This document shows, one piece after another, positions 1,020 to 50,690 of a DNA stretch of 51,174 nt; position 1 is the first letter of the stretch; the number at the start of each line of letters is the position of its first letter. Both the position numbers and the translations under genes were made by a program. The DNA lies in IMG/VR virus record IMGVR_UViG_3300050132_000130, positions 1-51,174 of that record; one strand, given 5' to 3'. The notes beneath the pieces were generated by a model that did not search any database, was not told the DNA's origin, and worked only from the letters and a program-made list of their open reading frames with translations. The stretch comes from a virus. Taxonomy: Duplodnaviria > Caudoviricetes.

Positions 1020-1313
1020 ATGACCGATGAACAAACCCAAGCGACCCTACAAGACACCCCCGATCCTGCGCTGATAAACGAGCAGGTGCGCGCGCAGGCT
1101 ATGGCGAACATGGCAGGGCAGACTCTCGGGCAGATCACGCAGGCCGCGATGCAGTTGCTCACGACGGCGACCTGTAATAACCCGCGCCTGTGCCTGGCTG
1201 TGGCGAACGAATTGTCTCTGATATACGCGGAGGCGTTGCGGCGCGGTCTGATGGTTAATCAGGCGACCGAGAAGGCCGACGAGGCGCCAGCACCGGAGGC
1301 CGCAAATGGCTGA
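1020..1313 (+). CDS. Hypothetical protein
   Basis: AAGGAG RBS upstream; overlaps the start of the next gene. Confidence 0.7.
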   Translation: MTDEQTQATLQDTPDPALINEQVRAQAMANMAGQTLGQITQAAMQLLTTATCNNPRLCLAVANELSLIYAEALRRGLMVNQATEKADEAPAPEAANG

Positions 1314-1554
1314 GGTCGGGGGCGTATCTGGTGAACGGCTGATGTCGTTTATCAAAAGGATTGAAAAACTGAATGAAGATAGGGACGCCGTTACGTCTGA
1401 TTTGACCGAGGTGTACGCGGAAAGCAAGTCGGTAGGATTCGACGTTAAAATCCTGCGCCAGATCGTGAATCTGCGTAAACAAGAGGTTGAGAAGCGGCGC
1501 GAGGAGTCCGAATTATTAGAACTCTACGCGAGTGCAATCGGCCTCGAAACCTAA
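1306..1554 (+). CDS. gapR: GapR-like nucleoid-associated protein (DUF2312/UPF0335)
   Basis: RLMSFIKRIEKLNEDR...EVYAESKSVGFDVKILRQIVNLRK...LELYASAIGL matches the family signature; GGAGG RBS. Confidence 0.9.
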   Translation: MAEVGGVSGERLMSFIKRIEKLNEDRDAVTSDLTEVYAESKSVGFDVKILRQIVNLRKQEVEKRREESELLELYASAIGLET

Positions 1555-1582: not shown

Positions 1583-1585
1583 GTC

Positions 1586-6555: not shown

Positions 6556-7260
6556 TCAGAACAGTTCAATCTGTTTGGCGGCGGATTCGATGCGGCGCAG
6601 TCCGGCCTCGAACCATTTCTCTGATTTTTCGATGCCGATGTACCGACGACCGGCCTTGATCGCCGCGACGCCGGATGAGAACACGCCAGCGAACGGATCA
6701 CATACGAGTTCGCCGGTCTGAGTGCTGTTTTCGATGTAGGATTGGAATAGGGCGACGGGTTTCTGCGTGGGATGACCTGAATCGTCATCGACCTGGGGGC
6801 ATCGAATGAGTTGTTTTGAGCCGCAATCGTTGATATATTTTGCCTTACCCTTGAAGAAAAACCCCGTAAATTCTAAATTTTTCATGAACCAGCGGTTCGG
6901 TGTTGCCGTCACCTTATCCCACACGAGCAGGTTATGAAATTTGAATCCCGCCACCTCAGCTGCGTTGAGCATGGGCTGGACATTGCGGTTATTTGCCATG
7001 ATGTAAGCATGTCCCGCCGGGAGAGCCGCCGACAATAACGGCATGAAATCCGGCCAGTCAATATCGCAATCGACGATCGACCCAGAATTGTCGTATGTCC
7101 CGCGCGCGAAACAGCCGCCCATCTCTCCGGTTGTATTGCCGCCGGATTCTAGTTTATATGGGGGGTCACAGCATATCATATCGACCGTGCCAATCGTCGG
7201 CAGGATTTCCATACTGTCGCCGCAGATCAGAGTCGCGCCGCCGATTATTTCCGTTCTCAT
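6556..7260 (-). CDS. DNA N6-adenine/N4-cytosine methyltransferase, beta class
   Basis: DPPY catalytic motif precedes HPTQKP and the DPFAG SAM-binding motif. Confidence 0.9.
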   Translation of the reverse strand: MRTEIIGGATLICGDSMEILPTIGTVDMICCDPPYKLESGGNTTGEMGGCFARGTYDNSGSIVDCDIDWPDFMPLLSAALPAGHAYIMANNRNVQPMLNAAEVAGFKFHNLLVWDKVTATPNRWFMKNLEFTGFFFKGKAKYINDCGSKQLIRCPQVDDDSGHPTQKPVALFQSYIENSTQTGELVCDPFAGVFSSGVAAIKAGRRYIGIEKSEKWFEAGLRRIESAAKQIELF

Positions 7261-9034: not shown

Positions 9035-9255
9035 TTTTTCCGCGCCGCCGGAGCCGTCACCAACCAATCATCGCGCGTGACGGCTCCCTTGGTGTATTCC
9101 TCTATAAGGGTCGAGGTCAGCAGGTCGGGACAGTTATCGCCTGACAGAACGCGGTGAATCGTACTCGGGAACTTCCCTAGTTCTCTTGCGAATATCGCTG
9201 ATTTTATCTTGTGCTTATCAAGATACTGTCTCAGCTTTACTGCCCCGACCAACAT
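9031..9255 (-). CDS. Cro/XRE-like helix-turn-helix regulator
   Basis: LRQYL...FARELGKFPSTIHRVLSG...P...IEEYTKGAVT-DW pattern of phage Cro-like proteins. Confidence 0.75.
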   Translation of the reverse strand: MLVGAVKLRQYLDKHKIKSAIFARELGKFPSTIHRVLSGDNCPDLLTSTLIEEYTKGAVTRDDWLVTAPAARKK

Positions 9256-16694: not shown

Positions 16695-16699
16695 TGTTG

Positions 16700-34077: not shown

Positions 34078-34669
34078 CGCTGTCGTCCTTCGCCGCATAA
34101 TCATCGGACAACACGCCAGCCATCGCGCTACGCAGGAACCCCGCGCGCGCCTGATCGAGATAATCACGCAGGAACCGGATCGCCTCGTCGGTATATCCGA
34201 ATTTCTTGCCAATCAGGTTCGGCAACATCTCCAACTGTTTCGCAAGCGCAACGACAACCGGCGCCAACTCGTTAATCACATCATCCCGATCCACCAGCCG
34301 ACCGCGTTTTTTGTCGAGTTCGAGTTGCAGCAGCGCGGTTTGGACTTGTGATTTAGTGCTCTTGTCTTTGTCTTTGTCGATGTATTTCTGGATCGACGGC
34401 GGTAACAAGCGCGGCCCGGCGCTGTTTCCCGCCGCCAAGTCGCGCTTGGCCTGGGCGCCAAACCCGTGTTTGGTGCCCGCCTCCTGTTTTCCGTAAGCCC
34501 ATGTGTGCGTTTGCAGCCATAGATCAATCTCATGCCGGTGAAACGCATATTTCAGTTTGTCATAGTTAGAATTACCGGGCGGGAAATCTATGTTTTCCGC
34601 TATAGTTTTCCTGATTATCTTGCGATCGACCCCATAAATTTTCTCTAATTCCCCGAGAGAGAGCGTCAT
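34070..34669 (-). CDS. Terminase small subunit (Nu1-like)
   Basis: N-terminal HTH-like segment, LELDKKRGRLV and L-LP motifs; directly upstream of TerL. Confidence 0.75.
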   Translation of the reverse strand: MTLSLGELEKIYGVDRKIIRKTIAENIDFPPGNSNYDKLKYAFHRHEIDLWLQTHTWAYGKQEAGTKHGFGAQAKRDLAAGNSAGPRLLPPSIQKYIDKDKDKSTKSQVQTALLQLELDKKRGRLVDRDDVINELAPVVVALAKQLEMLPNLIGKKFGYTDEAIRFLRDYLDQARAGFLRSAMAGVLSDDYAAKDDSDE

Positions 34670-35462: not shown

Positions 35463-35808
35463 TAAACCCCTCCAATTTTGCAGCCTGCGCCGCCTCGTCG
35501 TTCAGCGCATTTCCCATCGCCATCATGCGTTTCCAGAAGCCATGCCCCTCGCCATCGCTCTCCATGAAGAGCAAAAACATAAAGAGGTGGTACATTTTCT
35601 GTGACACCCACATTTCCGGCGACTGCAAACACGAGTCGACCATCAGACTATCACAAACCAGCTTTTTATTCGACATCAGTCGCGCGACGAAACGAGTCTC
35701 GTTGGCAATCTTGATGCGGGTTCGCTTTATCTCGGCCTTAACGTGTTCGTCGAGGAGGTATGACGAGGGCTGTGATGTGCCGAGCGCGGAGGGGTGTTGG
35801 ATTGTCAT
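35446..35808 (-). CDS. Hypothetical protein
   Basis: ATGA-coupled to the helicase; likely start MTIQHP. Confidence 0.6.
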   Translation of the reverse strand: MTIQHPSALGTSQPSSYLLDEHVKAEIKRTRIKIANETRFVARLMSNKKLVCDSLMVDSCLQSPEMWVSQKMYHLFMFLLFMESDGEGHGFWKRMMAMGNALNDEAAQAAKLEGFNGNLD

Positions 35809-37100
35809 CTTAATTCCTCTGGAACAACTATCGTGCAACGCAATCTGGCTCTTGTTACGGCACTATAAAGCCAACGGGCCATATTATTGTCGCGCAAAGA
35901 TTCAAAATGAACTATCACGCTATCCCACTCACTACCCTGCGATTTATGGGCGGTTATGGAGTAAGCCAGATCGACCATCTGTGTTCTGCGTCGTTCCGCA
36001 GTTTTTGGGTGCGTGATAAATTCGTTGTAAACCAGATAATCCTGAAAGTTTACATCCTCGGTGCTTCCAGTTATTTCCCAATATAGATGCGGAAAATCCA
36101 ATCTAGCATCAGAAGGATCGGGGCGCTTAACATCAGACACGGTGCCCATAATGCCATTGAAAATCTCATTCTCATAATCATTGGCAAGGAAAATTATACG
36201 GTCGTTGATGCAGATGTGTTTGTCTGGCAACAAACATTCTATAGGTTTTACTATATTATCTATGATCTTTCTGCGTTGGATTTTCGCGTTCATGGCCAGA
36301 CGAGTGGCATTCGAGGCACATATTATCTGATCGTGAGAATCATACAATTCATAACCGGCCATGCTTTTTGGAACGATGGAAAGTTCTTGATCGCCGTTCA
36401 ACTCTTTTCTTGCCTCATAATCGAACCATTTTCCTTCCCGCAAATTTGTTGCGAAACGAAGCACGGGACTGTCAAGGGCCTGCCGATGAACCTCCGAAAG
36501 AAGAATATCCGGCTTTATCAAGCCAAGAGGTGATCGACCCTTTACCGGGGGCAATTGAAACGGGTCGCCACAATAGATTACAGGGAGTCCTGTCGATGCC
36601 ATATCTGCAACCATTTTCTCAGTAACCATAGAACTCTCATCGACGACAATTATTTTTGATCTGTTGATTCTATCTTCATCAGGAGCAGATTCAAACGATG
36701 CCTCCTTCAAGTATTTTTGCTCTTCCTTTATAAGTCTGAGCATGGCCAAAGAAGCCTCACTTCGATGTTTTGGGTCGCTTCTTTCTAAAACCGCCAAATT
36801 CTCTTTAAGGTCATCAAGTTTTTTGCTGCCTTTGTTTATCGGCTTATAAAGCAATTTATGAATCGTCGTCGCGTCGTCGCATCCTTTCTTCCGTAATTGG
36901 GAAGCGGCCTTTCCTGTAAAGGCCGTGTATATCACCTTAGACTGATCGAAGCCCAATGTGTCTCCTATGTGTTTTGCAATGGTTGTTTTTCCCGTACCTG
37001 CAAAACCGTTTATAATAAACGGGCGCCTATGGTCGCTCTTATACCATTCACGCATCGCCTTCATGGCCTGTGTCTGCTGCGGAGAGAATTTAATATCCAT
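35805..37100 (-). CDS. SF1B helicase (RecD/Dda-like)
   Basis: GFAGTGKT, VDESSM, GDPFQLPPV, HRQA, TAHKSQGSEW, YSAVTRA. Confidence 0.92.
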   Translation of the reverse strand: MDIKFSPQQTQAMKAMREWYKSDHRRPFIINGFAGTGKTTIAKHIGDTLGFDQSKVIYTAFTGKAASQLRKKGCDDATTIHKLLYKPINKGSKKLDDLKENLAVLERSDPKHRSEASLAMLRLIKEEQKYLKEASFESAPDEDRINRSKIIVVDESSMVTEKMVADMASTGLPVIYCGDPFQLPPVKGRSPLGLIKPDILLSEVHRQALDSPVLRFATNLREGKWFDYEARKELNGDQELSIVPKSMAGYELYDSHDQIICASNATRLAMNAKIQRRKIIDNIVKPIECLLPDKHICINDRIIFLANDYENEIFNGIMGTVSDVKRPDPSDARLDFPHLYWEITGSTEDVNFQDYLVYNEFITHPKTAERRRTQMVDLAYSITAHKSQGSEWDSVIVHFESLRDNNMARWLYSAVTRARLRCTIVVPEELR

Positions 37101-38863
37101 TATACCACCCCATGAGGAATAAAAACACCGCGTGATTTCAGTTCACGGGAACCAAATGAAGTTTTTTCTGTGGGCCTCGCTCCATCTATCCGGCGCATCA
37201 CGGAATTCCATGCAACCGCGTAAGGTGTCCCGGCGTATATCTTTTTAAGTTCGGGGTGAGAATTGCTGATATTCAGTCCGAGCGGCTCGACCTTCATGCC
37301 GTATCTGAGGAGAATATCCTCGGCCTGCGTGTCAGCCAAATACGCCTGACCTTTCCTAGCCAACGCCACATCGATCAATTCCCCGACAGACATACTCTCA
37401 TGCCCCTTTTCCAATCGCACATCGATGAGACTCTGCATCAGGTGTGTGTAACATTTCGCGGCGTCGTCATTATCGGCGTCATCCTGTTTCTTCTCCTCCA
37501 AGAAATTTTTACCGACCAGATCATCGGCCTGCGCCGGAGTTATTACCTCGTCACTCATCAGACTCCATGTTCCGGACAGGAGCGCGCCCAACTGATCGCC
37601 GGTGCGCTGTGAGCCGTAGCGCGCGGCGACGGCGCGCGACAGTATCTTCGCGCTCTGCCTGATAACAGGAACCATAGAAATCGCGCGCGACATGAACGCC
37701 GAGCAGTAAGACTCATCGATCGTGTCGCAGACAATCTCTTCGAGTTCGGAAAATTGCCCCGTTCTGTCGGGGACGAGCTCGACCGTCGTGATGCGGCTGG
37801 AATCCGCCGACTGCACAATTGTCGAGTTTATCGACGCCATGCCGAAACACGACCGCACGTTAAACGACATCGGGCGACCGCTGACGGTGCCTTTGCCCTG
37901 AATCGCGCCCGTTTGGCTTGATGCTTGGCGGGCAAGTTCTAGGACATTCTGGATTCTCTTCACGGCGATTTCGGTGTTTCCCTCGGCCTCGTCGAACAGA
38001 ACGGGGATGGAGTCGTTGCCAAGAGCCTGCCGGATGAACGCCTCGCTGGTGTTGCCGGAAACGAACAGGCAGTTTTTACCGAATATCGGGCGCATGATTT
38101 TCGAGATCACCCAGCTTTTTCCCGTGCCCGCGCCGCCGTTCATCCAAACGTGTGGGCGCCATTCCAGCGCGCCGCCGATGTGGGCCACGACGCAATATCC
38201 AGCGATGTAGGCCGCCATAGCAGGATCGCGCCATTGAAGTTTTGAGCATATTTTATAAAACGTCGATGCCTCGGAGACTTCAAGCGGGTCGTCGATCTTT
38301 CCGGTTAGTGACAGATTGTTTTCATACAGGCATCCTCCCACGATGCCCGGCTTGAAATACCTGCCATCGGAAAAAACCTTATCGCCCATGTGGAAAATCA
38401 CGCTCTCAGTTTCGGAATTCCACCATGCTCCGCGACCACGCGTGTTGTTTGGATCAAAAATTCCAATGTCATGATTTATTGAGATCAGGTCGCTGGCGAT
38501 CGAGACAATGCTGACATCTTTCGTTGTCGGGTCGTAGTATTGGGAAAACCAATAAAACTCCGGTGCCAACTCCAAGATCGACATACGGGTGTGACCGCTA
38601 GACGGGAAACTTACGACCTGCCCCTTGTTGCGGGCAAAATAGAAATAATGCCCGTTATTGTGGCCGAGCAGGTCAAAATGACCGCCGCGATCCCTTAAAT
38701 CTGCCGTGACCCTTTGTGGCTGAGGACGGCCTCCTTTAACAAGTTTATCAAGCAAACTAACAGGTATGCCTAGGCTTTTGGCCTCATTGGTTCGCACCAT
38801 CGCGTAATCCACCTCATCGAGAAGGGATAACTTGGACGCAATTTCTTTGACTTGTTCGTTCAT
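37100..38863 (-). CDS. Replicative helicase/ATPase of primase-helicase type, no recognisable primase domain
   Basis: GGAGTGKS Walker A, LFDEAE Walker B, RGRGAW, D-SR motif; likely start MNEQVKE; adjacent to the iteron cluster. Confidence 0.75.
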   Translation of the reverse strand: MNEQVKEIASKLSLLDEVDYAMVRTNEAKSLGIPVSLLDKLVKGGRPQPQRVTADLRDRGGHFDLLGHNNGHYFYFARNKGQVVSFPSSGHTRMSILELAPEFYWFSQYYDPTTKDVSIVSIASDLISINHDIGIFDPNNTRGRGAWWNSETESVIFHMGDKVFSDGRYFKPGIVGGCLYENNLSLTGKIDDPLEVSEASTFYKICSKLQWRDPAMAAYIAGYCVVAHIGGALEWRPHVWMNGGAGTGKSWVISKIMRPIFGKNCLFVSGNTSEAFIRQALGNDSIPVLFDEAEGNTEIAVKRIQNVLELARQASSQTGAIQGKGTVSGRPMSFNVRSCFGMASINSTIVQSADSSRITTVELVPDRTGQFSELEEIVCDTIDESYCSAFMSRAISMVPVIRQSAKILSRAVAARYGSQRTGDQLGALLSGTWSLMSDEVITPAQADDLVGKNFLEEKKQDDADNDDAAKCYTHLMQSLIDVRLEKGHESMSVGELIDVALARKGQAYLADTQAEDILLRYGMKVEPLGLNISNSHPELKKIYAGTPYAVAWNSVMRRIDGARPTEKTSFGSRELKSRGVFIPHGVV

Positions 38864-38886
38864 GAGTTCCAGCCAAGTAGGACGGG

Positions 38887-38952
38887 TGCCAAGATGTAGG
38901 GTTGGGGGCGCGCATGTCTTGGCAACATGCAACGGATGCAGCCGTTGCCCCC
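38887..38952 (-). ncRNA. Candidate cis-regulatory structure in the leader of the replication helicase
   Basis: gggggc/gccccc stem enclosing caacgg/ccgttg and catgt/acatg hairpins; loop TGCCAAGA is complementary to downstream TCTTGGCA. Confidence 0.4.
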
Positions 38953-39060
38953 GCATGTTGGATAAACAGATTCGGGTGTGTTGTAAAGGGGGCGTGAAGA
39001 TGTTCCGTGTATGCAACGAAATTAACCAAAATACGGTAATAATTTAGTGTGTGAAACATA

Positions 39061-39367
39061 GTTCCACAGAGGGCGGGGAACCGATCTGCAAAAATATGCC
39101 AAATTTCCCTTATTTTTCAACGTTCCCCGTGTTCCCCGCTTTTCCCCAGAAACATATAGAATACCATAGACGAAGGCATATGGTTACCCATTATACCAAT
39201 AGTCCTATATATATAATTATATGTAGTCAAAGATATATATAAGGGGAACGGAACACTAAGCCTTTGATATATAAGAAAAATCGGTTCCCCAGTCCGTTCC
39301 CCAGTGGTTCCCCAGTCGGGGAACATGGCGTGTAATACATTGAACGGTATATATAATTTCGTTCCCA
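39061..39367. repeat. Putative replication origin: GTTCCCC iterons flanking an AT-rich core
   Basis: Direct and inverted GTTCCCC/GGGGAAC copies near 39075, 39122, 39131, 39243, 39284, 39296, 39307 and 39318; AT-rich 39200-39240; IHF match at 39257-39269. Confidence 0.7.
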
Positions 39368-39577
39368 CACCTGTATTCATGCTGTGATCGGCGGGAAAGT
39401 AAGGGGTTTTTCGGGAAGCCGCATATCCCATCCACCAGTGCGCCGAACTATAAACCGCACCCCAGTGACGCCCACCCCGTTTAAACGAGCCACGCCTCAA
39501 CCTGCACAGGATAAACGGCGGCAGAACAAACACGTGAGGTCGGGGATGGTTTCAAAATTAGTTTCAGTCAGATTTTA

Positions 39578-39624
39578 CGCGCGCCCGAAATGCCCGTGTA
39601 CGTTGCAGACCTCTGGGAGGACCC
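39578..39624 (-). other. Putative cos site (cosQ plus cosN)
   Basis: - strand GGGTCCT (identical to lambda cosQ, 39624-39618), 23 nt ending in ACG, then GGCATTTCGGGCGCGCG; same spacing as lambda; phage encodes a GpA terminase. Confidence 0.65.
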
Positions 39625-39801
39625 TAAGTCTTTGATATATATAGACATTCCTTGTGTGGTATCCCGATACCATTACTCAACTCATTGATATATAATATAT
39701 TACATTATTGTATATTATATATCATTATCAATATGTTATGTATTATGTTAAATGAAATAACATATAGTATATTCAACCACTTAAGTATTATGTTAAATGA
39801 A
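39625..39801. promoter_or_regulatory. AT-rich tract with three IHF consensus sites and a 17-bp direct repeat
   Basis: WATCAANNNNTTR matches at 39625-39637 (-), 39678-39690 (-), 39726-39738 (+); gtattatgttaaatgaa at 39740 and 39785. Confidence 0.6.
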
Positions 39802-39810
39802 CAAGACAAG

Positions 39811-39842
39811 AAAAAGGCGAGTCAATCTTGTTGACTCGCCTT
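39811..39842 (-). terminator. Rho-independent terminator of the HNH gene
   Basis: Perfect 12-bp stem aaggcgagtcaa/ttgactcgcctt running into a T-tract on the - strand. Confidence 0.75.
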
Positions 39843-39859
39843 GATAGTTATGAATGAAA

Positions 39860-40591
39860 TTATATGCCCCGACAGTTATCGGCGAGTCGTTGCCATTTAG
39901 GATCGTCGCTTGAATGCTTGAGTCTATTACAATCAAGGCAACATATAACAATGTTATCTTGCGTATGTAATCCGCCAGAAACAAGCGGCTTAACGTGATC
40001 CATTGACTTGTTTGCAGGTGTAAGAGGCTTGCGACAATAAGGGCAGTCTTGCGATGAATCAAAAAGATTCTGGAGCCATTGCTTTGTAACACTTCCATCG
40101 CTTGCACGTTTTGCAGCTAGTTGATTCGTGCTTAGGTGTTTTTCATTATCCACAAAATATCGCCTTGATTTTTCTTTGAATGTGTTGCGCCTATATCTAT
40201 CCCTGTACCGCGCGGCTTCTTTCTGTCTAAAATATTTTGCTTCTTCTTCCGTTAGCGTTGCATACCAGGCCTTTGTACCTTGTGCAGGTTTTGCCGGATG
40301 GTCTAGGCGATAGAGTCGCTTGGCTTCCTTCCTTGCGGCTTGGTCAATAATCCGTTGCGCCTTGTGTTCGACTGATAGGATAGATTGAATCGCCTTAGGG
40401 ATATATTCCTTGTTTGTTTCTCCTCTCCTGCGCCGCCCGTCTGCCCTTGCTTGTGGCGAATGTGCAGCAATAAAAGACGGCGAATTCCTTACACAATGCG
40501 TGCAGGATGCCGTTAATCCATCTTTTGATGCCTTACGTTTAGAAAAGGCGGATTCTTCCTTCTCTATTAGGCAGGTTGTGCAAGTTTTCAT
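39860..40591 (-). CDS. HNH endonuclease with N-terminal zinc-ribbon
   Basis: CPYC...DHVKPLVSGG-H-DN-CC-DCN-K; N-terminal CTTC...DGL...CTHC; likely start MKTCTTC. Confidence 0.88.
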   Translation of the reverse strand: MKTCTTCLIEKEESAFSKRKASKDGLTASCTHCVRNSPSFIAAHSPQARADGRRRRGETNKEYIPKAIQSILSVEHKAQRIIDQAARKEAKRLYRLDHPAKPAQGTKAWYATLTEEEAKYFRQKEAARYRDRYRRNTFKEKSRRYFVDNEKHLSTNQLAAKRASDGSVTKQWLQNLFDSSQDCPYCRKPLTPANKSMDHVKPLVSGGLHTQDNIVICCLDCNRLKHSSDDPKWQRLADNCRGI

Positions 40592-40726
40592 GTTGGAATA
40601 TCCTTTGTTGTTTGTTAAATATGCCCTTATAATAGGCACAAAATACCCCCATAAGCAATAAAACAATAAACTTGACATTATAAAATAGCGTTTATTGCTA
40701 TCTTTGCGCTTAGACAAAATTGTCCA

Positions 40727-40755
40727 TTGACAAAGCAATTGATAAGGCGCAAATT
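40727..40755 (+). promoter_or_regulatory. Candidate early promoter
   Basis: TTGACA(40727-40732)-17 nt-CAAATT upstream of the + strand small-gene cluster; a second TTGACA at 40672. Confidence 0.4.
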
Positions 40756-40799
40756 GTCATCAAGAGAACAAAACAACCCGCAAACAAACGGAGTCTAAA

Positions 40800-40997
40800 A
40801 TGAAAACAGCACAAGCAACAATTACTAAGGACATGACACTAGGTCAGGCCGTTGCAGCTATCCAATATGCGTGGCCTGCTACAAGATGCCGTATTTCTTA
40901 CCCCGAAAATAATGTTGTTACAATCGAGGAAAACGAAAAAGGAATACAGCGTTGCGATATTGGATTTACGATAGCTTGCCTTTACCGCCAATCCTAA
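40800..40997 (+). CDS. Small early hypothetical protein
   Basis: GGAGTCTAAAATG leader. Confidence 0.75.
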   Translation: MKTAQATITKDMTLGQAVAAIQYAWPATRCRISYPENNVVTIEENEKGIQRCDIGFTIACLYRQS

Positions 40998-41017
40998 CAA
41001 ACCAATAGGAGTCTAAA

Positions 41018-41200
41018 ATGAAAAAACAACCACAAACAATCACAACTCTATTCATGGGCTATCAGGCTAATCTTGCAACATGCCACACAAGCCTAGAGCG
41101 TCAATTGTCGCGCGTGATAACCGGAAAAGAGATTCGCGCGCTTGCCATAAAGAAGGGCATGTTGACGAGTCGCGAGTCTGCTATCGTCGCGCAATTTTAA
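41018..41200 (+). CDS. Small early hypothetical protein
   Basis: GGAGTCTAAAATG leader. Confidence 0.75.
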   Translation: MKKQPQTITTLFMGYQANLATCHTSLERQLSRVITGKEIRALAIKKGMLTSRESAIVAQF

Positions 41201-41224
41201 TCCCTCATACAAAAGGAGTCTAAA

Positions 41225-41515
41225 ATGTATGAATTAAAAATAATCGCCGCGCCCGTATCATCCTACAAGGTGGAATCGAACGGCGAGTCGATAACCATGA
41301 TAAGCCAAGCATGGAATAGCCCTGCATTGCTGCATCAAGTCCGGCATGTAAAAAACCTACAGGAAGGGATTCATGTTGTGCAAGCCTGTTTTAATCAGGT
41401 TAGGCAGGATCACCCCGAAACCGAATTTAGTTTTTCGACTCGTGCTATCGGGCGTAAACCTAACGGATTCGACAAAGTGAGAGTCCAGCTGAATCCTAGC
41501 TACACTAACGTTTAA
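41225..41515 (+). CDS. Early hypothetical protein
   Basis: AAGGAGTCTAAAATG leader. Confidence 0.75.
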   Translation: MYELKIIAAPVSSYKVESNGESITMISQAWNSPALLHQVRHVKNLQEGIHVVQACFNQVRQDHPETEFSFSTRAIGRKPNGFDKVRVQLNPSYTNV

Positions 41516-41538
41516 CCCTCAAACAAAAGGAAAATACC

Positions 41539-42171
41539 ATGTTGCACACACAGACTCCCCTAGAAAAAATAACTGCGCGTAGGTCACAATATAACCCTGA
41601 TAGAGCGTTTTTTATCCCTCCCGGATATACGCTTGCAATTGACGACGAGTCGCTAGGAGTCGCCATATATCACGGACTCGGCGTAAAATATGGTAAGCCT
41701 TGTTCTATTCGGTTTTTCGGGAAGTCTAAAAAACCCCGTGAACATTACAGGTATGACTCGGAAGAAAAACGCGCGGAAGGTGACTCAAAATTCATGGAGT
41801 CGAGTCGATCGTGTATGAATTACAGGGAAGCAAACAAAGCGGCGGCAAAGGCAAAACGCGCGACTCCCCATACACTAAAAGAAGGCGATATATTGGTTAG
41901 TTCATGGGGTTATGAGCAAACCAATGTTGAATTCTATCAGGTGATAGGACTCAAGGGTCAATTCACGGTTTTATTGAAAGAGATAGGCGGAAAAAGCGTA
42001 GGTTGCGAGGGTTCCAGCATGTCAGATATGGTAATCCCTGTTAAGGACTCGTTCGGGGATTCTAAGGTAATAGAAAGGCGCGCGTGTGTTGGCAATTATA
42101 TCAAGATTAATGACTGCCAACAGGCGAGTCTATGGGAAGGGTGCCCTATGTATAGGTCTTGGTACGCATAA
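41539..42171 (+). CDS. Conserved phage early protein (SWGYEQTNVEFYQV motif)
   Basis: GDILVSSWGYEQTNVEFYQV motif recurrent in mobile-element proteins; function unknown. Confidence 0.75.
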   Translation: MLHTQTPLEKITARRSQYNPDRAFFIPPGYTLAIDDESLGVAIYHGLGVKYGKPCSIRFFGKSKKPREHYRYDSEEKRAEGDSKFMESSRSCMNYREANKAAAKAKRATPHTLKEGDILVSSWGYEQTNVEFYQVIGLKGQFTVLLKEIGGKSVGCEGSSMSDMVIPVKDSFGDSKVIERRACVGNYIKINDCQQASLWEGCPMYRSWYA

Positions 42172-42172
42172 A

Positions 42173-42230
42173 GGACGAAACGCCGAAAGGCGTCTTAGGG
42201 TATGTTCCCTAACTGAAGAGTCCACAAACA
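42173..42230 (+). ncRNA. Type II hammerhead ribozyme
   Basis: GGAC-GAAA-CGCC-gaaa-GGCG-UC^-UUAGGG-uauguu-CCCUAA-CUGAAGA-GUCC: intact core, three stems, GUC cleavage triplet (cut after 42194). Confidence 0.92.
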
Positions 42231-42245
42231 AATGGAGAGTCTAAA

Positions 42246-42929
42246 ATGTCTATCATCAACACACGAGTCGAATGCCTTAAAGCCGTTTTCCCATTCGTTT
42301 CAAAAGAGGAAACGCGCTATTACCTGAACGGCGTTTACGCCGAGTCCGGCCTGTTAGTCGCCACTGACGGGCATAGGCTTGCAGCGATTAAACCTGCCCT
42401 AATGGAGTCGCAAGGGGCGGGATTCATAATCCCTAGTGCGACGATTAAACAGGTCTTGTCTATCAAGGCCGGGAAACGCGAAGAATTATTCTCTGAATTC
42501 AATACGGAAACGGGAGTCGCCACGGTTTACACGTTAGACCGCGATAAGAATCGCGATTCAAAAGGCGCGTTTCCGTTTAAACCTATCGACGGCACGTTTC
42601 CAGAATGGCGGCGCGTGATTCCATCGGCGGAAAATTTTAATACCGCCAACCATAAGGATCGGAATCAAAACACGGGCGCGGAATTCAATTCCGCATATCT
42701 TGCCACTTTTCAGGCATTCGGGGATAAGGTAAACGTGTTTTTGAATAATGATCCCGGCGCGCCTTCACTTGTGACGGCAAAAACGGAATTGTTTGAGGCT
42801 GTAGGGGTGATTATGCCAATGCGTAGCTATGAATTGGCCGCCGTATTGCCTGAATGGATCAAGGTGACACCTACCCCCCCGGCGGCATTGGATTCAGAAA
42901 CGGTAAAGGAATCTGAATCGGTTATTTAA
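42246..42929 (+). CDS. Truncated DNA polymerase III beta-clamp-like protein
   Basis: SKEETRYYLNGVY, VATDGHRL, IDGTFPEWRRVIP, FNSAYL, VIMPMR correspond to DnaN central and C-terminal domains; 227 aa. Confidence 0.85.
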   Translation: MSIINTRVECLKAVFPFVSKEETRYYLNGVYAESGLLVATDGHRLAAIKPALMESQGAGFIIPSATIKQVLSIKAGKREELFSEFNTETGVATVYTLDRDKNRDSKGAFPFKPIDGTFPEWRRVIPSAENFNTANHKDRNQNTGAEFNSAYLATFQAFGDKVNVFLNNDPGAPSLVTAKTELFEAVGVIMPMRSYELAAVLPEWIKVTPTPPAALDSETVKESESVI

Positions 42930-42988
42930 TGTAAGACCGTGCCCGTGCGGTTCACGGGCGAATTATGTAAATAAACAGGAGTCGAGTC

Positions 42989-43267
42989 ATGTCAAAACAT
43001 ACGCCAGCATCTTGGATCGTAAGGGATGTATTTATAGAAAATTTTCCTAATAAATACATGATAACAGAAAATAAATGGGGCGGTAAAACCATTGCTGATT
43101 GTGGAATTACTGTATCACAAGAAAGCATAGCTAATGCCCGATTAATGGCGGCGAGTCCTGAATTGTTTCACATTGTAACCGAGTTTTTAGAATGCGGTGA
43201 CAATGCCGGGCACAATGAAGAATTAAAGGCATTGGCACGAGCCGCTATTGCCAAAGCTAGGGGATAA
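42989..43267 (+). CDS. Conserved phage protein (HTPxxW...ANARLxAAxPEL family)
   Basis: KHTPASW, ANARLMAASPEL and ARAAIAKA motifs. Confidence 0.8.
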   Translation: MSKHTPASWIVRDVFIENFPNKYMITENKWGGKTIADCGITVSQESIANARLMAASPELFHIVTEFLECGDNAGHNEELKALARAAIAKARG

Positions 43268-43338
43268 TCCCCCCGGCATTGATAAAAATAAACCGAGTCG
43301 GGCAATAATGCCCCCTCATACAAAAGGGAGTATATAAA

Positions 43339-43560
43339 ATGAGCAACGTATCAGGCACAACGCCGCGCTATCTGCCCGGCCAAAAATTCAAGACAGGCGG
43401 CAAGCGAGGGGATATTTGCACCGTTACAGATATTCATAAAACCTATAACGGCTCGGGGGAATTGGTAAAAACCCGTTACGTTGCAACGCATGAATTTTGC
43501 GGTCAGGTGATAACGGACTCGGATGTTGTGGAAGCAACTATCGCGCGGGGGTTGCTATGA
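43339..43560 (+). CDS. Small hypothetical protein
   Basis: GGGAG RBS within a repeated leader; ATGA-coupled to the next ORF. Confidence 0.75.
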   Translation: MSNVSGTTPRYLPGQKFKTGGKRGDICTVTDIHKTYNGSGELVKTRYVATHEFCGQVITDSDVVEATIARGLL

Positions 43561-43805
43561 TCCGCGCCGCGCTATTAACCGCTTGCCTTGTCGCCGGGTT
43601 CACGGCGGGGCACTACACAAGGCCGCCGCCGCAACCCGTGCGAACGGTGCACCAATCCGTTTACATCCCGGCATTTATCCCGTTACGGCATCCAGCGAGT
43701 CGGTATGTCGGGCAACAGATTAACCGGATAGCGGCAACAATTCCGGCGGGGGTTTTGTTACCCCCTCCCGGCATCACTCATAAAAAACACCACAAGGGGG
43801 GATAG
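43557..43805 (+). CDS. Hypothetical protein with N-terminal hydrophobic segment
   Basis: MIRAALLTACLVAGF start at the ATGA overlap. Confidence 0.5.
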   Translation: MIRAALLTACLVAGFTAGHYTRPPPQPVRTVHQSVYIPAFIPLRHPASRYVGQQINRIAATIPAGVLLPPPGITHKKHHKGG

Positions 43806-43955
43806 GCCGATGATCGACGCGCGACAGGGTAATTATAGGGCGGCGACATTGACCGCGCAGGACATGCGGCGATTGTCGCATCAAGACAGGGGACAGCCGC
43901 GCGAGACGGAAAAACCTGAGATTTTGTGGGAACAACCGAAAAATGAGGTGAAATC

Positions 43956-44360
43956 ATGAGTATCATCCCCGCCCCGTCATCCATCGGCGGCCATTATGAG
44001 AGTCACGCCCCCGGCCACGGCGGACTAACATTCCGCCACATATACCTCGGCCAGCCCACAACGCAGCCCGTGCCCCGCCAGATCGCGCAACGCCTGACTC
44101 CGCCCGGATGGGTGCTGAGATCGCCGGGCAGCGTGCTGGAGGCGTACAGGCCGTTTAGACGCCTGTCACCAAACACGCTGGAACACCCGAGCGGCTCGGT
44201 TTACATGCACGCCATTATATCGCACCCCTCCCCCGGCTATCAATTTTGGCTCTGGAACGGCGGGGTATGGGAAATTGCGCGGAACGAGTCGTGGCGCGCG
44301 AGTCTCCGGTATTTTCTGACGCATGAGAGCCTGTTGCTCGACGAGGTGGCCGATGCGTGA
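43956..44360 (+). CDS. Hypothetical protein
   Basis: GAGGTG RBS; 134 aa. Confidence 0.55.
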   Translation: MSIIPAPSSIGGHYESHAPGHGGLTFRHIYLGQPTTQPVPRQIAQRLTPPGWVLRSPGSVLEAYRPFRRLSPNTLEHPSGSVYMHAIISHPSPGYQFWLWNGGVWEIARNESWRASLRYFLTHESLLLDEVADA

Positions 44361-44589
44361 CAGGGATGCGCTGCTCTGGTCGCTGCTCGGCACCGGAAAC
44401 ACCAACAAACTGAGGGAGATATATTATGCTGACGGATGCCCAATGCCGACTCCGCGCGTTAAACGCCCGGCACGACGAACTAAGGCGGTTGGATGTGTCA
44501 CAGACCGTTCTGTTGGCATGTGCAATAGTTTTGAGATTAACGGAGGGATGCGGTTCGACGATGGCGGCATGGAGCGTACCGGAGGATAA
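44353..44589 (+). CDS. Hypothetical protein
   Basis: GAGGTG RBS before MRDRDALLW; overlaps the upstream stop. Confidence 0.4.
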   Translation: MRDRDALLWSLLGTGNTNKLREIYYADGCPMPTPRVKRPARRTKAVGCVTDRSVGMCNSFEINGGMRFDDGGMERTGG

Positions 44590-44641
44590 CTGACCGATGG
44601 GGATGACCCCCGGCGGCATCTAAAACTGAAGGAGAAAAGTA

Positions 44642-45172
44642 ATGAAACAGCCCCTAATTGATGGCTCTAGACTCCAATTTGTTTATCTCGATAAACCTAT
44701 TTCTTTGGAGCTAACAGACTTGGATATAGATACAAGGCACGACTTCAAATACTGGAATTATGAATCAGAAATGCGCGGTGATAAGCCAATCGTGACATCA
44801 ACGACTAATTTTTTTGCGACATGTTTGGAAGGTCAGAATGTCCGGTCTTTTGGTATGGGGGAACTATGCCGTCTCCAATGTACCGCGTTTGCTAATACAA
44901 AATCAGGAGAGATAATATATCAGTTCCGCAATGATGGTTCTGTCGATGTTATATTCCCAGAAGAAAAGCCAGTTGTGAAGATAGATATCAGCGACGATCT
45001 TGAGAAAAATGCTATTGATAGGTTGAAAGAACTGATAGGTCGCGGCTTCCAAGTTAAGAGCATCGGAGAGTGCGGTACGGCGCAAGATATCGAATTCTGT
45101 GTGAAGATGTCTCGTCTCTCGAAACCAACCCTCACCACCCCCATCAAACGTCCCAGCAGGAGCAAGAAATGA
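44642..45172 (+). CDS. Hypothetical protein
   Basis: AAGGAG RBS; 176 aa; more AT-rich than its neighbours. Confidence 0.7.
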   Translation: MKQPLIDGSRLQFVYLDKPISLELTDLDIDTRHDFKYWNYESEMRGDKPIVTSTTNFFATCLEGQNVRSFGMGELCRLQCTAFANTKSGEIIYQFRNDGSVDVIFPEEKPVVKIDISDDLEKNAIDRLKELIGRGFQVKSIGECGTAQDIEFCVKMSRLSKPTLTTPIKRPSRSKK

Positions 45173-45351
45173 AAGTAAAATTGTATGATATAAAATCCGG
45201 CGCACAACGCGGAGAGATAAATATCCCTGAAGATGTTGGGTATATGGCGATCCGTGTGGCGGCATGGATGAAGGAGAATGCCGTTGATTGTTTTCAGGAC
45301 TTACAGTTGCGAGACCGTACCCCGGCGGCATCATCGCCACGGAAACGCTGA
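45169..45351 (+). CDS. Small hypothetical protein
   Basis: AGGAG RBS and ATGA overlap; MKVKLYDIK start. Confidence 0.6.
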   Translation: MKVKLYDIKSGAQRGEINIPEDVGYMAIRVAAWMKENAVDCFQDLQLRDRTPAASSPRKR

Positions 45352-45422
45352 CTCGATGATTTCCCCTCGACAAACGCCCGCGAATCATATACCGATTATT
45401 AACCAACCCAAGGAGACACCCT

Positions 45423-45587
45423 ATGAATATCTGCGATTGCCGTCCGAGAATTGATCTAGTCTGGGCCGCACAGAAGATACCAGGATTTGCCGAAATGGTC
45501 GCCACCCAGGCGCGCGTTCGGGCAAGTGAGTTGGAATACAAACAGAAACATGGAGTATCACATGGCCGCCAAGAAGAAGCACGTTAA
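45423..45587 (+). CDS. Small hypothetical protein (54 aa; not in ORF track)
   Basis: AAGGAG RBS; MNICDCRPRIDLVWAAQ... Confidence 0.55.
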   Translation: MNICDCRPRIDLVWAAQKIPGFAEMVATQARVRASELEYKQKHGVSHGRQEEAR

Positions 45588-45828
45588 GTCTCGCACAAAA
45601 CCGTTGCGCGGTAACGATGTGCCCGCACCAAAGACTCCCCCGGCATCGATCTCAAAACCGTACACGATTGCCGAAGCGACCGAGGACGGACACCGCACCG
45701 GTTACGCGATCGGGTGTGAGGACGGTTACGACAAGGGGCAGGAATCCGGCATTCTCATCGGCGCGATATTCGGTGCCGTGGCTGCGTTTATCGCCGCGCT
45801 GATATTTGCGGCGTTGAAATTCCAGTAA
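45562..45828 (+). CDS. Hypothetical protein with C-terminal transmembrane helix
   Basis: GGAG RBS; GY-G-GY-G repeat then ILIGAIFGAVAAFIAALIFAAL. Confidence 0.6.
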   Translation: MAAKKKHVKSRTKPLRGNDVPAPKTPPASISKPYTIAEATEDGHRTGYAIGCEDGYDKGQESGILIGAIFGAVAAFIAALIFAALKFQ

Positions 45829-45836
45829 ATGGCCCC

Positions 45837-46262
45837 ATGTCGGCAGCCATAACCCAATCAATACTGACGTGGCAACAGCGGGCGGAAATGTACCAGCGCC
45901 GATGTGAGGCGCTCGAACAGCAATTATTCGAGATGAAATTAGTTATCGCTGAACCGAAACAATTTGATGCGACTTTTATTAATGCGTTTGGACTAACAAA
46001 ACAGGAAGACTTGGCGCTCGATTATATTATGCGACACGATTATCCGACGAGAGAAAGAATATATCACGCATGTTCACAGGATGGCCGCATTAATGCGGGG
46101 TCGTCTCCTAAGATCGTCGATGTTCTGGTCAGCAGAATACGGAATAAATTGAAGAAACACGGCATCAGGATCGAGACACAATGGGGAGTCGGTTATCGTA
46201 TGAGCAACGAGAGTAAGGCGCTGGTGAGGCGCGTGGCGGCAGCGTATCAGGGGCAGGTGTAG
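45837..46262 (+). CDS. CtrA/OmpR-type winged-helix DNA-binding protein lacking a receiver domain
   Basis: GLTKQE...PKIVDVLVSRIRNKL...IETQWGVGY Trans_reg_C signature preceded by a short coiled coil. Confidence 0.85.
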   Translation: MSAAITQSILTWQQRAEMYQRRCEALEQQLFEMKLVIAEPKQFDATFINAFGLTKQEDLALDYIMRHDYPTRERIYHACSQDGRINAGSSPKIVDVLVSRIRNKLKKHGIRIETQWGVGYRMSNESKALVRRVAAAYQGQV

Positions 46263-46266
46263 GTTG

Positions 46267-46545
46267 TTACTGGTTCAGGCATGTCGCACCTTTCATCTGC
46301 TCAATAATTTCTGGGTGACAATATATCTTATCGCCCATCTGGATCATTCCCGGCACCTGCTTGCTTTGAAAGCCCCAAGCCTTCATAAGCTTCTTGTGGA
46401 CGCGGCGTGACCGATTACGGCTCTTTTTGAAGTTCTCAATCTTTTGCATAATGCGGTCGCTCGATATAATAGGAATACCCGCAAGCATCGAGAGCATACC
46501 AGACTGATGTCCGATATAAGCTAACGGGTTCGTGGTTTGTGTCAT
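46267..46545 (-). CDS. Small hypothetical protein (MTQTT start)
   Basis: Last gene of the coupled - strand array. Confidence 0.7.
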   Translation of the reverse strand: MTQTTNPLAYIGHQSGMLSMLAGIPIISSDRIMQKIENFKKSRNRSRRVHKKLMKAWGFQSKQVPGMIQMGDKIYCHPEIIEQMKGATCLNQ

Positions 46546-48444: not shown

Positions 48445-48650
48445 TTGTGCACCCGAGGGTTTTTGAGTTTGTTCTTCTTAGGTAGCGGCGGAAATCCACG
48501 AAGAGTCGCCTTCGATTCCATACCCATCCCGGGCTTCGATGAGAACTCCATAGAGGTGCAGACCCATCGCTGGCTTCTGATAGTTTCCCGCGTGAATGAA
48601 GACACGGAACCAGGCATTTGCACGGTGATAGTGATAGTGGTTTGTGTCAT
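48441..48650 (-). CDS. Small hypothetical protein (MTQTT start)
   Basis: GAGGGG RBS and ATGA overlap. Confidence 0.6.
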   Translation of the reverse strand: MTQTTITITVQMPGSVSSFTRETIRSQRWVCTSMEFSSKPGMGMESKATLRGFPPLPKKNKLKNPRVHK

Positions 48651-49171
48651 GCTACTTTCCCCCTCAAGATAAATTGCGCGATATGTCGGGCAGTTCCTTT
48701 GCCAGCGGATCCGTCCTCGGTTGCTAACCACTTCACATCGCCAAGATTGCGAATTTCTGCACCAGCCTTAACGAGCATGAGCAACCATTTATCAACCGGA
48801 AAAACTATCACGACATCTTTGCCTTTTTCCTGTTCTTTGATCGCTTTGCGAACCCATGCGGTCGGCCCCTTTTTCTTGCCTTCGTGCATGATGTATCCGA
48901 ACGGCGGATTGACGTAACTCGACTTCCCCCATTCGCAGGTTAGCCCGTCGAAGTATTCGGGCTTCGGATACGGGCAAGGATCAAAGTCGAAATTAAACTC
49001 GCCCTGCATCTGAGCCATAAGTTCAGGCGGCGTAAGCCAATAATGTTTTCCGTCATCTCCATTGCCTTTGTGGAATTTGTTGTCAGCGGGCGCAAGCAAT
49101 GATTGATGAGGCGTCGCTGGTTCATCCCAGATTTTTGCCATCTGTTCGCTAAAAGTCGTTTCCATTGTCAT
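48647..49171 (-). CDS. Phage DNA N6-adenine methyltransferase (Dam-like)
   Basis: WLTP, FDFDPC, W-YVNPPF, W-KA-E motifs. Confidence 0.8.
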   Translation of the reverse strand: MTMETTFSEQMAKIWDEPATPHQSLLAPADNKFHKGNGDDGKHYWLTPPELMAQMQGEFNFDFDPCPYPKPEYFDGLTCEWGKSSYVNPPFGYIMHEGKKKGPTAWVRKAIKEQEKGKDVVIVFPVDKWLLMLVKAGAEIRNLGDVKWLATEDGSAGKGTARHIAQFILRGKVA

Positions 49172-49967: not shown

Positions 49968-50166
49968 TGAGAATGCCTCCTGCAAGATTTCCAATATCTG
50001 AGAAACCTTCTCGGTAGTCCTCAGAATTAAGAGAGCAGAGGGCATCTATTTTCTGGAAAGCATCCTGAAGATAATTTACTGCCGTAAGTGCATCCGCAAC
50101 AGTCTGCACATCTTGATCGAGAATGCCGAGCTTGATGATGTCGAATAGGGTCGTTTGTGTTGTCAT
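49957..50166 (-). CDS. Small hypothetical protein (MTTQTT start)
   Basis: AAGGA RBS and ATGA overlap. Confidence 0.65.
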   Translation of the reverse strand: MTTQTTLFDIIKLGILDQDVQTVADALTAVNYLQDAFQKIDALCSLNSEDYREGFSDIGNLAGGILNGI

Positions 50167-50690
50167 ATCAATTTCCTTTCAGGTTCCAGCTTCCGTTCTG
50201 CCAAGCAGATCGTATCGTTATGCGCCCCACCGTGGCAGACAAGCAGTATTTCCTCTATCTCATACCCGCGCCCTTTTCCCATGCCAACTGTGTTCCAGCC
50301 GAATGAAAGGACGATGCCGCCGACTTCAACAATCGGATCGAAAGCATCCCTGACGCGCTTGTAGAGCAATGCGCTCTGCGTTTCCTTCATGCCGACTTCC
50401 ATGCCGATATTCTTATAACATTCCGAAATCTGGCGAGGGGAATAAGGTGGATCGAACAGAACGAGATCAATAGGTTTGCCGAGCTGTTTGCAGAACTCTT
50501 CAGCGTCCATATGGCTATCGGCTTGTGTGGTAGGGTCAAGATCATTCGTGTAGGTTGCCAGACGCTTGTTTCTAGCAAACGGGTCGATACTTACCTTTGA
50601 CGCAGAAAGATAGCGGCGCACAAAGTCGCCGATTGGGGCAATCGAGAATGTTTCGTGATTAGGCATCGCCCATGCGCGTGAGAATTTCAT
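50163..50690 (-). CDS. Putative adenine-specific DNA methyltransferase
   Basis: IDPFA (SAM-binding-like) and LFDPPYS catalytic motifs; HGGAHND. Confidence 0.75.
   Translation of the reverse strand: MKFSRAWAMPNHETFSIAPIGDFVRRYLSASKVSIDPFARNKRLATYTNDLDPTTQADSHMDAEEFCKQLGKPIDLVLFDPPYSPRQISECYKNIGMEVGMKETQSALLYKRVRDAFDPIVEVGGIVLSFGWNTVGMGKGRGYEIEEILLVCHGGAHNDTICLAERKLEPERKLI

Follow-up and report, generated by a model that had tools for sequence, protein, structure and literature searches.

We identified a dense array of GANTC sites, the word methylated by adenine methylases of Alphaproteobacteria, in the genome of a tailed phage (Caudoviricetes; IMG/VR record IMGVR_UViG_3300050132_000130). The 51,174-base window analyzed here is the whole virus record, and the public runs that hold this record are peat and permafrost metagenomes. 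The core of the array (40791..43701) contains 46 GANTC sites (32 GASTC and 14 GAWTC) with a median spacing of approximately 60 bp. The GANTC-dense region as a whole (39819..44310) includes two shoulders, the 3' part of an HNH endonuclease gene and the segment at 43.0–44.3 kb, and 60 sites are found in 39800-44400. The excess persists under codon-preserving null models, the array adjoins a candidate replication origin, the phage carries its own CcrM-like methylase, and a similar excess occurs in non-homologous genes of Ruegeria phages. Based on these observations, we tentatively propose that selection on the DNA itself keeps the array near saturation, and that the array may act as a methylation-state element beside the origin.

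Counts and context of the GANTC sites

The sites in 40791-43700 consist of 23 GAGTC, 9 GACTC, 6 GAATC and 8 GATTC, exactly the totals that a first-pass annotation of the sequence had put at about 32 GAGTC/GACTC and about 14 GAATC/GATTC. Elsewhere in the genome GANTC occurs at approximately 3.8 per kb, and the window contains 235 sites compared with 199 expected from base frequencies. The densest 2-kb interval (41001-43000) holds 41 sites, whereas the density of the remaining genome predicts 7.9 (-log10 p 16.1). A Markov order-2 model of the region predicts 2.2 GAGTC, 0.6 GACTC, 3.6 GAATC and 2.7 GATTC, or 2.8 GASTC compared with 32 seen and 6.3 GAWTC compared with 14 seen. GAGTC/GACTC is the commonest 5-mer of the region and, among all strand-collapsed 4- to 6-mers, forms the strongest local cluster of the genome with the exception of the TA runs of an AT-rich region. 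The longer forms CGASTCG and CGANTCG are found 8 times in 40780-43710 and 10 times in 39800-44400, respectively. An excess of AATTCA in the region has no common context and was discarded.

Thirty-seven of the 46 core sites lie in genes, where they occupy frames 0, 1 and 2 in 16, 8 and 13 cases, and this spread over three frames argues against a repeated peptide as the cause. A GANTC site also falls within the 22 nt before the start codon in five of seven cluster genes, compared with six of 40 other genes. These ribosome-binding-site leaders contain their sites in GGAGTCTAAAATG (four times) and GAGTCGAGTCATG (once). The first of these is a 13-base translation-initiation repeat with its first copy at 40788..40802 (plus strand) and further copies at 41008, 41215 and 42236. 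Downstream of the HNH gene, a terminator-like hairpin consisting of a 12-bp stem and a T run (39814..39842, minus strand) carries GAGTC and GACTC in its arms. Codons, ribosome-binding-site leaders and a terminator stem had all been named as locations in the first-pass annotation, and sites were found in each. Because both strands, all frames, the leaders, the terminator and a divergent gene are affected, the enrichment is a property of the double-stranded DNA rather than of one protein or mRNA.

The enrichment persists under two codon-preserving nulls, each consisting of 1000 shuffles. In the synonymous shuffle, codons were exchanged within the seven genes among positions with identical amino acids, and the nine sites outside or across genes were held fixed. 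The mean is 24.8 GANTC (standard deviation 2.4), and none of the 1000 shuffles reach 46. For GASTC the mean is 14.3 compared with 32 seen (0/1000), and for GAWTC it is 10.5 compared with 14 seen, a count that 91 of 1000 shuffles reach. Permutation of codon order gives 16.9 GANTC, again with none of 1000 reaching 46, and 5.3 GAWTC, with two of 1000 reaching the observed count.

We also determined, codon by codon, the positions at which a site could arise without a change to the protein, and compared the seven cluster genes with 24 others. The cluster genes use 23 of 55 GASTC opportunities (42%) compared with 42 of 435 (9.7%) in the other genes (p 1.3e-8), and 14 of 38 GAWTC opportunities (37%) compared with 58 of 329 (17.6%; p 0.0086). 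Within the cluster the use of GASTC and GAWTC opportunities does not differ (p 0.67). Since both central-base classes are used alike, the word selected for is GANTC irrespective of its central base, a 5-bp interrupted palindrome of the HinfI/CcrM recognition type that is unlike ordinary operators. The window does not contain a GAGTC-only array of the PleI/MlyI/N.BstNBI type, as GAWTC is raised too. In all, approximately 40% of the silent opportunities are filled over 2.5 kb of coding DNA. CcrM is described as having no central-base preference (PMC3287173), and PMC3667746 makes no statement on such a preference of GcrA.

The spacing of the array sites is random, with no helical phasing, preferred spacing or periodicity beyond random placement in the window or in the Ruegeria phages DSS3-P1 and V16. 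No extended motif or common context surrounds the sites. Both flanks show a slight bias toward C or G, and a C precedes GAGTC at 22 of 41 sites in the cluster compared with 17 of 74 outside.

Two stretches bordering the array are free of GANTC. These are the likely early promoter region of about 240 bp (40552-40790) and the origin-like core (39017-39818). The distribution is patchy across the genome, as the 3,976 bp of 1505-5479 contain no GANTC compared with approximately 15–18 expected. This stretch covers a gene for a 1181-amino-acid tail fiber with GDSL lipase and S74 chaperone domains, and resembles a module acquired from a phage that avoids GANTC. A different word is clustered nearby: 17 of the genome's 43 copies of CCCGGC/GCCGGG are found in 42468-46349, 13 of these 17 on the plus strand, with the longer forms CCCCGGCGGCAT occurring three times and CCCGGCAT several times.

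Candidate origin, methylases and related phages

Between the primase gene and the array lie 800 bp of non-coding DNA. This segment contains 11 copies of an iteron-like GTTCC/GGAAC repeat in 351 bp (39050..39400), compared with 0.8 expected (p 1e-9), followed by TATATA-rich direct and inverted repeats (39620..39820). The lowest-GC 150-bp interval of the genome starts at 39671 (GC 0.21), and the cumulative GC-skew minimum falls at approximately 40–42 kb. Iterons next to AT-rich DNA are the anatomy of an iteron origin, making the segment a candidate origin adjoining the array. On the side of the array, TTGACA boxes spotted by eye at about 40673 and about 40729 were not called in a consensus promoter scan.

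The first-pass annotation had placed the array next to a putative cos site and, provided that this call is right, at the end of the DNA that is ejected first. The record carries an exact 127-bp direct repeat at its two ends (1-127 and 51048-51174; unique length 51,047 bp), which indicates a circularly closed assembly with arbitrary coordinates and without ends. The large terminase is of the lambda gpA type, the small terminase gene terS is approximately 5 kb from the array, and the adjoining DNA resembles an origin. The same circular assembly, gpA-type terminase and distance to terS apply to a comparison with a packaging site of the P1 pac type. The 800 bp of non-coding DNA may also hold cos, and it appears better supported that the array is replicated first than that it is ejected first.

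The phage encodes three DNA methylase genes. The candidate GANTC writer (6556..7260, minus strand; 234 amino acids) is a beta-class N6_N4 DNA methylase with a DPPY motif (PF01555, 8.6e-22). Among solved structures it is closest to Caulobacter CcrM (6PBD, E 1.8e-17), to which it aligns over residues 12-259 of 366. This corresponds to the catalytic domain, and the C-terminal DNA-binding domain of CcrM is absent. The protein scores 64.2 bits against the CcrM model NF050803, which has a cut-off of 830, and is accordingly not an orthologue by that measure. Among named phage proteins its closest relative is PhiOC_p213 from Ochrobactrum phage vB_OspM_OC (41.5% identity over 97% of the length), followed by relatives from Ruegeria and Loktanella phages, the same ones named in PMC7139368. 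PhiOC_p213 is reported to render plasmid DNA resistant to HinfI and is termed a mimic of CcrM without the C-terminal domain (PMC7139368). The GANTC specificity of the enzyme in the window is predicted from this relative. The methylase is part of a block (6181-9067) that also includes genes for a VRR-NUC nuclease, a DUF7768 protein (nucleoside 2-deoxyribosyltransferase-like) and a ResIII/DEAD helicase.

The second methylase (48647..49171, minus strand) is a small Dam-family adenine methylase (PF05869) with an NPPF motif. Its identity is 80.5% with a protein of a Pelagibacter phage and 73% with one of a Bradyrhizobium phage, and it has no similarity to PhiLM21_p027, the GANTC enzyme of phage phiLM21. 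The third (50163..50690, minus strand) matches phrog_11619 and has a DPPY motif. Nine 6-bp palindromes are absent from the whole genome (AGATCT, CCATGG, CCGCGG, CTCGAG, GCATGC, GTATAC, TACGTA, TGATCA and TGCGCA) and TTCGAA is present once compared with 23 expected, a signature of heavy restriction pressure. GANTC is not avoided, as would be expected if the phage methylates it. A structural relative that lacks the methylase (contig G002:C247) has 78 GANTC compared with 169 expected.

A second array is found in the Ruegeria phage DSS3-P1, whose first 6.1 kb contain 60 GANTC (45 GASTC and 15 GAWTC) compared with 2.9 per kb over the remaining 53.5 kb. Its densest 2-kb interval has 30 sites compared with 6.5 expected. 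Synonymous shuffling of 400-5420 gives 32.8 ± 2.7 sites compared with 57 observed (0/1000), and GASTC drives the effect. The related phage V16 has 91 GANTC in 8.2 kb, 31 of them in a 1.7-kb segment without a DSS3-P1 counterpart. The layout also resembles that of the window: across the ends of the DSS3-P1 record lie, within approximately 1 kb, 9 GTTCC/GGAAC repeats (1.1 expected) and the lowest-GC spot of the genome, together with a primase-helicase gene. No homology was detected when the genes in the array of the window were compared with those in the DSS3-P1 array. The genes that the two phages have in common are limited to distant head genes, GapR and the methylase, which in the Ruegeria phages is of the same family as the CcrM-like enzyme of the window (39.7% identity). 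With non-homologous array genes, few common genes and a like layout, the Ruegeria array is an independent parallel, and the array has thus arisen at least twice. A comparison of DSS3-P1 with V16 has no power as a conservation test, since the two are 95–98% identical and 59 of 66 aligned sites are kept compared with 88.4% for control 5-mers. Between the record end and the array, the first 300 bp of DSS3-P1 contain tandem GC-rich repeats (CAGCCCGG units followed by GCCCGC/GTGTGC runs).

Comparison among related phages, as proposed in the first-pass annotation, revealed arrays in DSS3-P1 and V16 and none in 161 other loci and 12 genomes or contigs. The 81 loci around homologues of a 210-amino-acid protein encoded in the array have at most 19 GANTC per 2 kb, and 80 loci of GapR-carrying phages (1.27 Mb) have at most 16, so that none of the 161 loci (approximately 2 Mb) exceeds 19 per 2 kb. 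There is no array in Loktanella phage pCB2051-A, Acinetobacter phage Brutus, 50 kb of vB_OspM_OC or contig G002:C247, nor in the Bradyrhizobium and Pelagibacter phages, G008, G010 and phiLM21. The same is true of three complete phages whose methylases are the closest homologues (50–62% identity). Most of the array-free phages surveyed are depleted in GANTC. The 80 GapR-phage loci have a median observed/expected ratio of 0.38 and a 5th percentile of 0.10 (base-frequency expectation), and Pelagibacter phage HTVC100P has a single GASTC compared with 11–16 expected from Markov models. Sinorhizobium phage phiLM21 has 53 GANTC compared with 178 expected despite encoding an unrelated GANTC methylase. 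Depletion of GANTC has also been reported for pelagiphages (PMC9516812).

The window represents a complete circular myophage. Family scans identified, on the minus strand, genes for the large terminase TerL (31993-34212), the sheath (23546-25027), the portal, protease and major head protein, and baseplate and tail-fiber proteins. A homing-endonuclease-like gene (phrog_314; 15957-16709) is inserted amid the baseplate genes. A Dda-like helicase (35805-37100) and the DNA primase (37100-39016), both on the minus strand, lie beyond the origin-like region, opposite the array. The HNH endonuclease gene (39860..40738, minus strand) has 8 GANTC in its 3' part and is transcribed away from the early operon. 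This rightward operon of small genes extends from 40800 to 46262 and begins with three small genes (40800..41515; 65, 60 and 96 amino acids) without a family match. These are followed by the 210-amino-acid protein (41539..42171; phrog_37844; 13 GANTC inside), a 227-amino-acid protein resembling the DNA polymerase III beta sliding clamp (42246..42929; 12 GANTC inside), two small genes matching phrog_1273 and phrog_28041 (42989..43560) and, at the end of the operon, an OmpR-type winged-helix protein (45837-46262), all on the plus strand. Neither feature nor structure neighbors give a named family for the 210-amino-acid protein. The approximately 1.1 kb of 43560-44640 hold two open reading frames (ORFs), 43497-43805 and 43956-44360, neither with a family match, and may be non-coding or contain unrecognized genes. 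No DNA polymerase was recognized among the ORFs scanned, the clamp-like protein being the sole related find, and tRNA and Rfam scans of the window were both empty.

The searches made revealed no near relative of the phage. GenBank phages contain no megablast match to the region, and the clamp-like protein has no loci in IMG/VR. For the primase, identity to phage proteins does not exceed 37%, and metagenome contigs hold one relative, at 30%. Relatives of the sheath in contigs of metagenome-assembled genomes have only structural genes in common with the window. Parts of the region have matches of 90–99% identity in contigs of other peat runs, with replacement of cassettes. In place of the gene at 40800-40997, runs X3 and X5 have 224 bases of other sequence; the joints, at 40802 and 40993, lie at or just before two copies of GGAGTCTAAAATG, and the copy at 40788 forms the left joint. 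In run X2 the approximately 2 kb from 41319 to 43272/43336, including the genes for the 210-amino-acid and clamp-like proteins, are replaced. Judging from these contigs, the early region is hypervariable and built of swappable cassettes. As a test of site conservation the peat contigs have no power: based on 41 of approximately 292 differences, none of the 17 in 39.8–42.4 kb hits a site, with approximately 0.5 expected.

A GapR-like DNA-binding protein is encoded at 1306..1554 (plus strand; PF10073, E 4.7e-26). To our knowledge, GapR is restricted to Alphaproteobacteria and their phages. Given this gene, the affinities of the methylases and a relative of the sheath encoded on a contig assigned to Telmatospirillum (a weak host hint), the host is probably alphaproteobacterial. 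The CcrM and alphaproteobacterial framing of the first-pass annotation is broadly supported for the GANTC word and for the likely setting of the phage, but the phage's own CcrM-like methylase had been overlooked. With such an enzyme a host CcrM would not be required; a host lacking CcrM, which that annotation considered fatal to its proposal, is unlikely and would be less relevant given the predicted phage enzyme. The GapR-like gene and an upstream ORF form a 600-bp cassette (958-1558) that is 98.5% identical to G008:C1 at approximately 46.7–47.3 kb. GapR itself is 98% identical in this otherwise unrelated 52-kb IMG/VR phage, and the homology is limited to the 600 bp, which suggests a recent exchange between co-occurring phages.

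Possible functions of the array

If the array is indeed a methylation-state element, the CcrM-like methylase of the phage (6556-7260), and probably the host CcrM as well, would methylate both strands at every site. The infecting genome would then arrive with a patch heavily marked by N6-methyladenine (m6A). Because this patch adjoins the candidate origin, it would be one of the earliest parts of the genome to turn hemimethylated after the onset of replication. A methylation-sensitive reader, which could be the host GcrA-sigma70 RNA polymerase complex or another phage or host factor, might tell parental from newly replicated copies and in this way time early transcription and/or use of the origin. 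Precedents for this logic are Caulobacter, which couples promoters to fork passage via CcrM sites, and the GANTC-rich origins of repABC replicons (PMC6090056). We infer the methylation of the array, the identity of the reader and the effect of its reading. A more specific version, which we regard as doubtful, is that the marked array serves as a landing pad that captures a host m6A reader, and that hemimethylation made by the fork frees the reader, resulting in a replication-coupled early-to-late switch. The phage's own CcrM mimic would pre-load the marks, and the device would have evolved independently in at least two alphaproteobacterial phage lineages.

One candidate reader is GcrA, which the first-pass annotation had suggested might be recruited to the cluster together with RNA polymerase. 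GcrA is described as having the consensus YGAKTCG, with methylated GANTC as the binding signal and sites either upstream or downstream of the transcription start (PMC5887438). However, the array does not favor this motif, which fits 8 of 46 cluster sites compared with 29 of 189 other sites (p 0.82), and the promoter region at 40552-40790 is devoid of GANTC. In DSS3-P1 the consensus fits 8 of 60 array sites compared with 12 of 127 other sites, and in V16 it fits 15 of 91 compared with 2 of 40. A role in countering silencing by MucR (PMC5172544) was also considered for the array and was rejected, as the DSS3-P1 array is not AT-rich (G+C 0.66).

Several observations weigh against a methylation-state element. 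Besides the indifference of the array to YGAKTCG, the window ORFs scanned gave no GcrA-like match at a Pfam E of 0.01 or better, and the lack of sites in the early promoter region itself is left unexplained. Random spacing provides no pointer to cooperative, phased binding. In the window the array covers the promoter-proximal 2–3.5 kb of a 5.5-kb operon, while in DSS3-P1 it covers promoter-distal genes, and with these opposite placements one simple transcriptional model fails to fit both phages. DSS3-P1 has a clear excess in GASTC only: 11 of 76 GAWTC opportunities are used compared with 23 of 265 in other genes (p 0.19), and its GAWTC count is equalled or exceeded in 855 of 1000 synonymous shuffles. 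The specificity of the window's methylase is predicted from a relative with 41.5% identity, and its score against the CcrM equivalog is 64 bits compared with 830. In addition, the presence of a methylase does not predict an array, as illustrated by pCB2051-A, Brutus, the 50 kb of vB_OspM_OC, the phages with the closest homologues, and phiLM21. The proposal fails to explain the very high density of sites and the lack of an array in most methylase-bearing relatives.

It is also possible, though we consider it unlikely, that the same methylation sites serve as a sink for host CcrM, GcrA or a GANTC restriction enzyme, or as a dense self-mark for recognition by a defense or counter-defense protein. 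The use of approximately 40% of the synonymous opportunities looks like an accumulation of as many sites as possible, which suits titration, and the small genes of the region are swappable, as is common in anti-defense regions. GANTC is also under strong selection in phages of such hosts, given the median ratio of 0.38 and the depletion in Bradyrhizobium, Pelagibacter and Sinorhizobium phages. However, the array adds just 46–60 sites to a total of 235, which for a replicating phage provides little extra titration. A sink has no need to be in one place or close to an origin, yet the arrays of two unrelated phages are both, and why a phage that supplies a GANTC methylase itself would deprive the host of CcrM is not obvious.

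Alternatively, GAGTC/GACTC may be the real target of a phage DNA-binding protein, of a nicking or type IIS enzyme, or of primase starts near the origin. PleI, MlyI and N.BstNBI recognize GAGTC, and the T7 primase needs GTC. Simple baselines give a 5–10-fold enrichment of GASTC and approximately 2-fold of GAWTC, DSS3-P1 passes the codon-aware tests in GASTC only, C is preferred before GAGTC in the cluster, and genes for a primase, a helicase and an HNH nuclease flank the region. Against this, GAWTC opportunities are used as fully as those for GASTC in the window and above the level of other genes. The primase-helicases of the window and DSS3-P1 have no detectable similarity, and neither an extended motif nor phasing was found. 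There is also no strand bias in DSS3-P1 (22 compared with 23) or V16 (34 compared with 32). On balance we doubt that the shorter word is the target.

Recombination is a further possibility, in which the sites would be hot spots or linkers for cassette exchange in the hypervariable early region. The joints in runs X3 and X5 coincide with copies of GGAGTCTAAAATG, the replaced segment of run X2 shows exchange on a larger scale, and the additional 1.7-kb segment of V16 is equally dense in GANTC. CcrM is reported to open a bubble at its site (PMC7544214). However, 37 of the 46 sites are within genes rather than at cassette borders, ordinary homology accounts for joints at a 13-base repeat, and selection for evolvability is weak relative to the saturation of opportunities observed, making this explanation improbable.

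Finally, a by-product of composition, codon or amino-acid usage, repeats or GANTC-rich import is very hard to credit and is already largely refuted by the nulls, the opportunity test and the locus survey: the region has a G+C of 0.42–0.50 compared with 0.52 for the genome, four sites derive from one repeated leader, and GANTC density is patchy across the genome, but the Markov order-2 model and both codon-preserving nulls fail widely, the sites occur in all frames and outside genes with no other common context, no GANTC-rich donor pool is seen among the 161 loci, and a like excess is found in non-homologous genes of Ruegeria phages.

Comparison with known systems

Origins of alphaproteobacterial replicons carry the same word. 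The origins of repABC replicons are described as GANTC-rich (PMC6090056), and GANTC density is reported to rise around chromosomal origins in four alphaproteobacterial orders (PMC9836097). Like the phage array, the repABC origins and repE promoters and the Caulobacter origin region combine GANTC and a presumed CcrM-type mark with a position at or beside an origin. However, they consist of few sites over a few hundred bases, in the non-coding or promoter DNA of cellular replicons. The phage array consists of 46–60 sites over 3–4.5 kb, mostly in genes, and the origin-like core at 39017-39818 is itself free of GANTC.

Another analogy is provided by GATC clusters that are read by methylation state, such as E. 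coli oriC with SeqA, the phage P1 pac site and the P1 origin. In these systems the sites of a solitary adenine methylase are located at a control point of replication or packaging, and full, hemi- and unmethylated states are distinguished, as we propose for the phage array. The word and the class of methylase differ, and the GATC clusters are tightly spaced over 150–250 bp, compared with random spacing over kilobases here. We know of no SeqA-like reader in Alphaproteobacteria. P1 also carries its own methylase with the specificity of the host enzyme (PMC7139368).

GcrA-dependent methylated promoters are similar to the phage array in that CcrM-methylated GANTC is a signal for protein binding. 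In the window, however, YGAKTCG is not enriched, most sites are kilobases from any promoter, and a phage GcrA was not found among the ORFs scanned. Phage CcrM mimics such as PhiOC_p213 and PhiLM21_p027 are represented in the window by a homologue of the former. Genes for such mimics are reported near replication genes, and a role in replication is suspected (PMC5537653). The papers on these mimics describe enzymes and no cis-acting array of sites, and vB_OspM_OC (50 kb) and phiLM21 lack an array. The literature searched contains reports of GANTC depletion and of CcrM mimics and none of a phage with a local array of GANTC.

Bacteria classically use clusters of methylation sites as control devices that signal the state of replication, and we found no such cluster described for GANTC in viruses. 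The array is extreme in that phages of these hosts mostly avoid GANTC (median ratio 0.38 in 80 loci), and a five-fold local excess is the opposite of this norm. Why alphaproteobacterial phages often carry methylases that mimic CcrM was left open by the authors who characterized them (PMC7139368, PMC5537653). The phage's own methylase, the origin-like neighbor and the Ruegeria parallel are new elements in this context. Given the recurrence of the array in cultured phages, infection of Ruegeria pomeroyi DSS-3 by DSS3-P1 or V16 provides a tractable system in which to address why these phages so frequently encode CcrM mimics.

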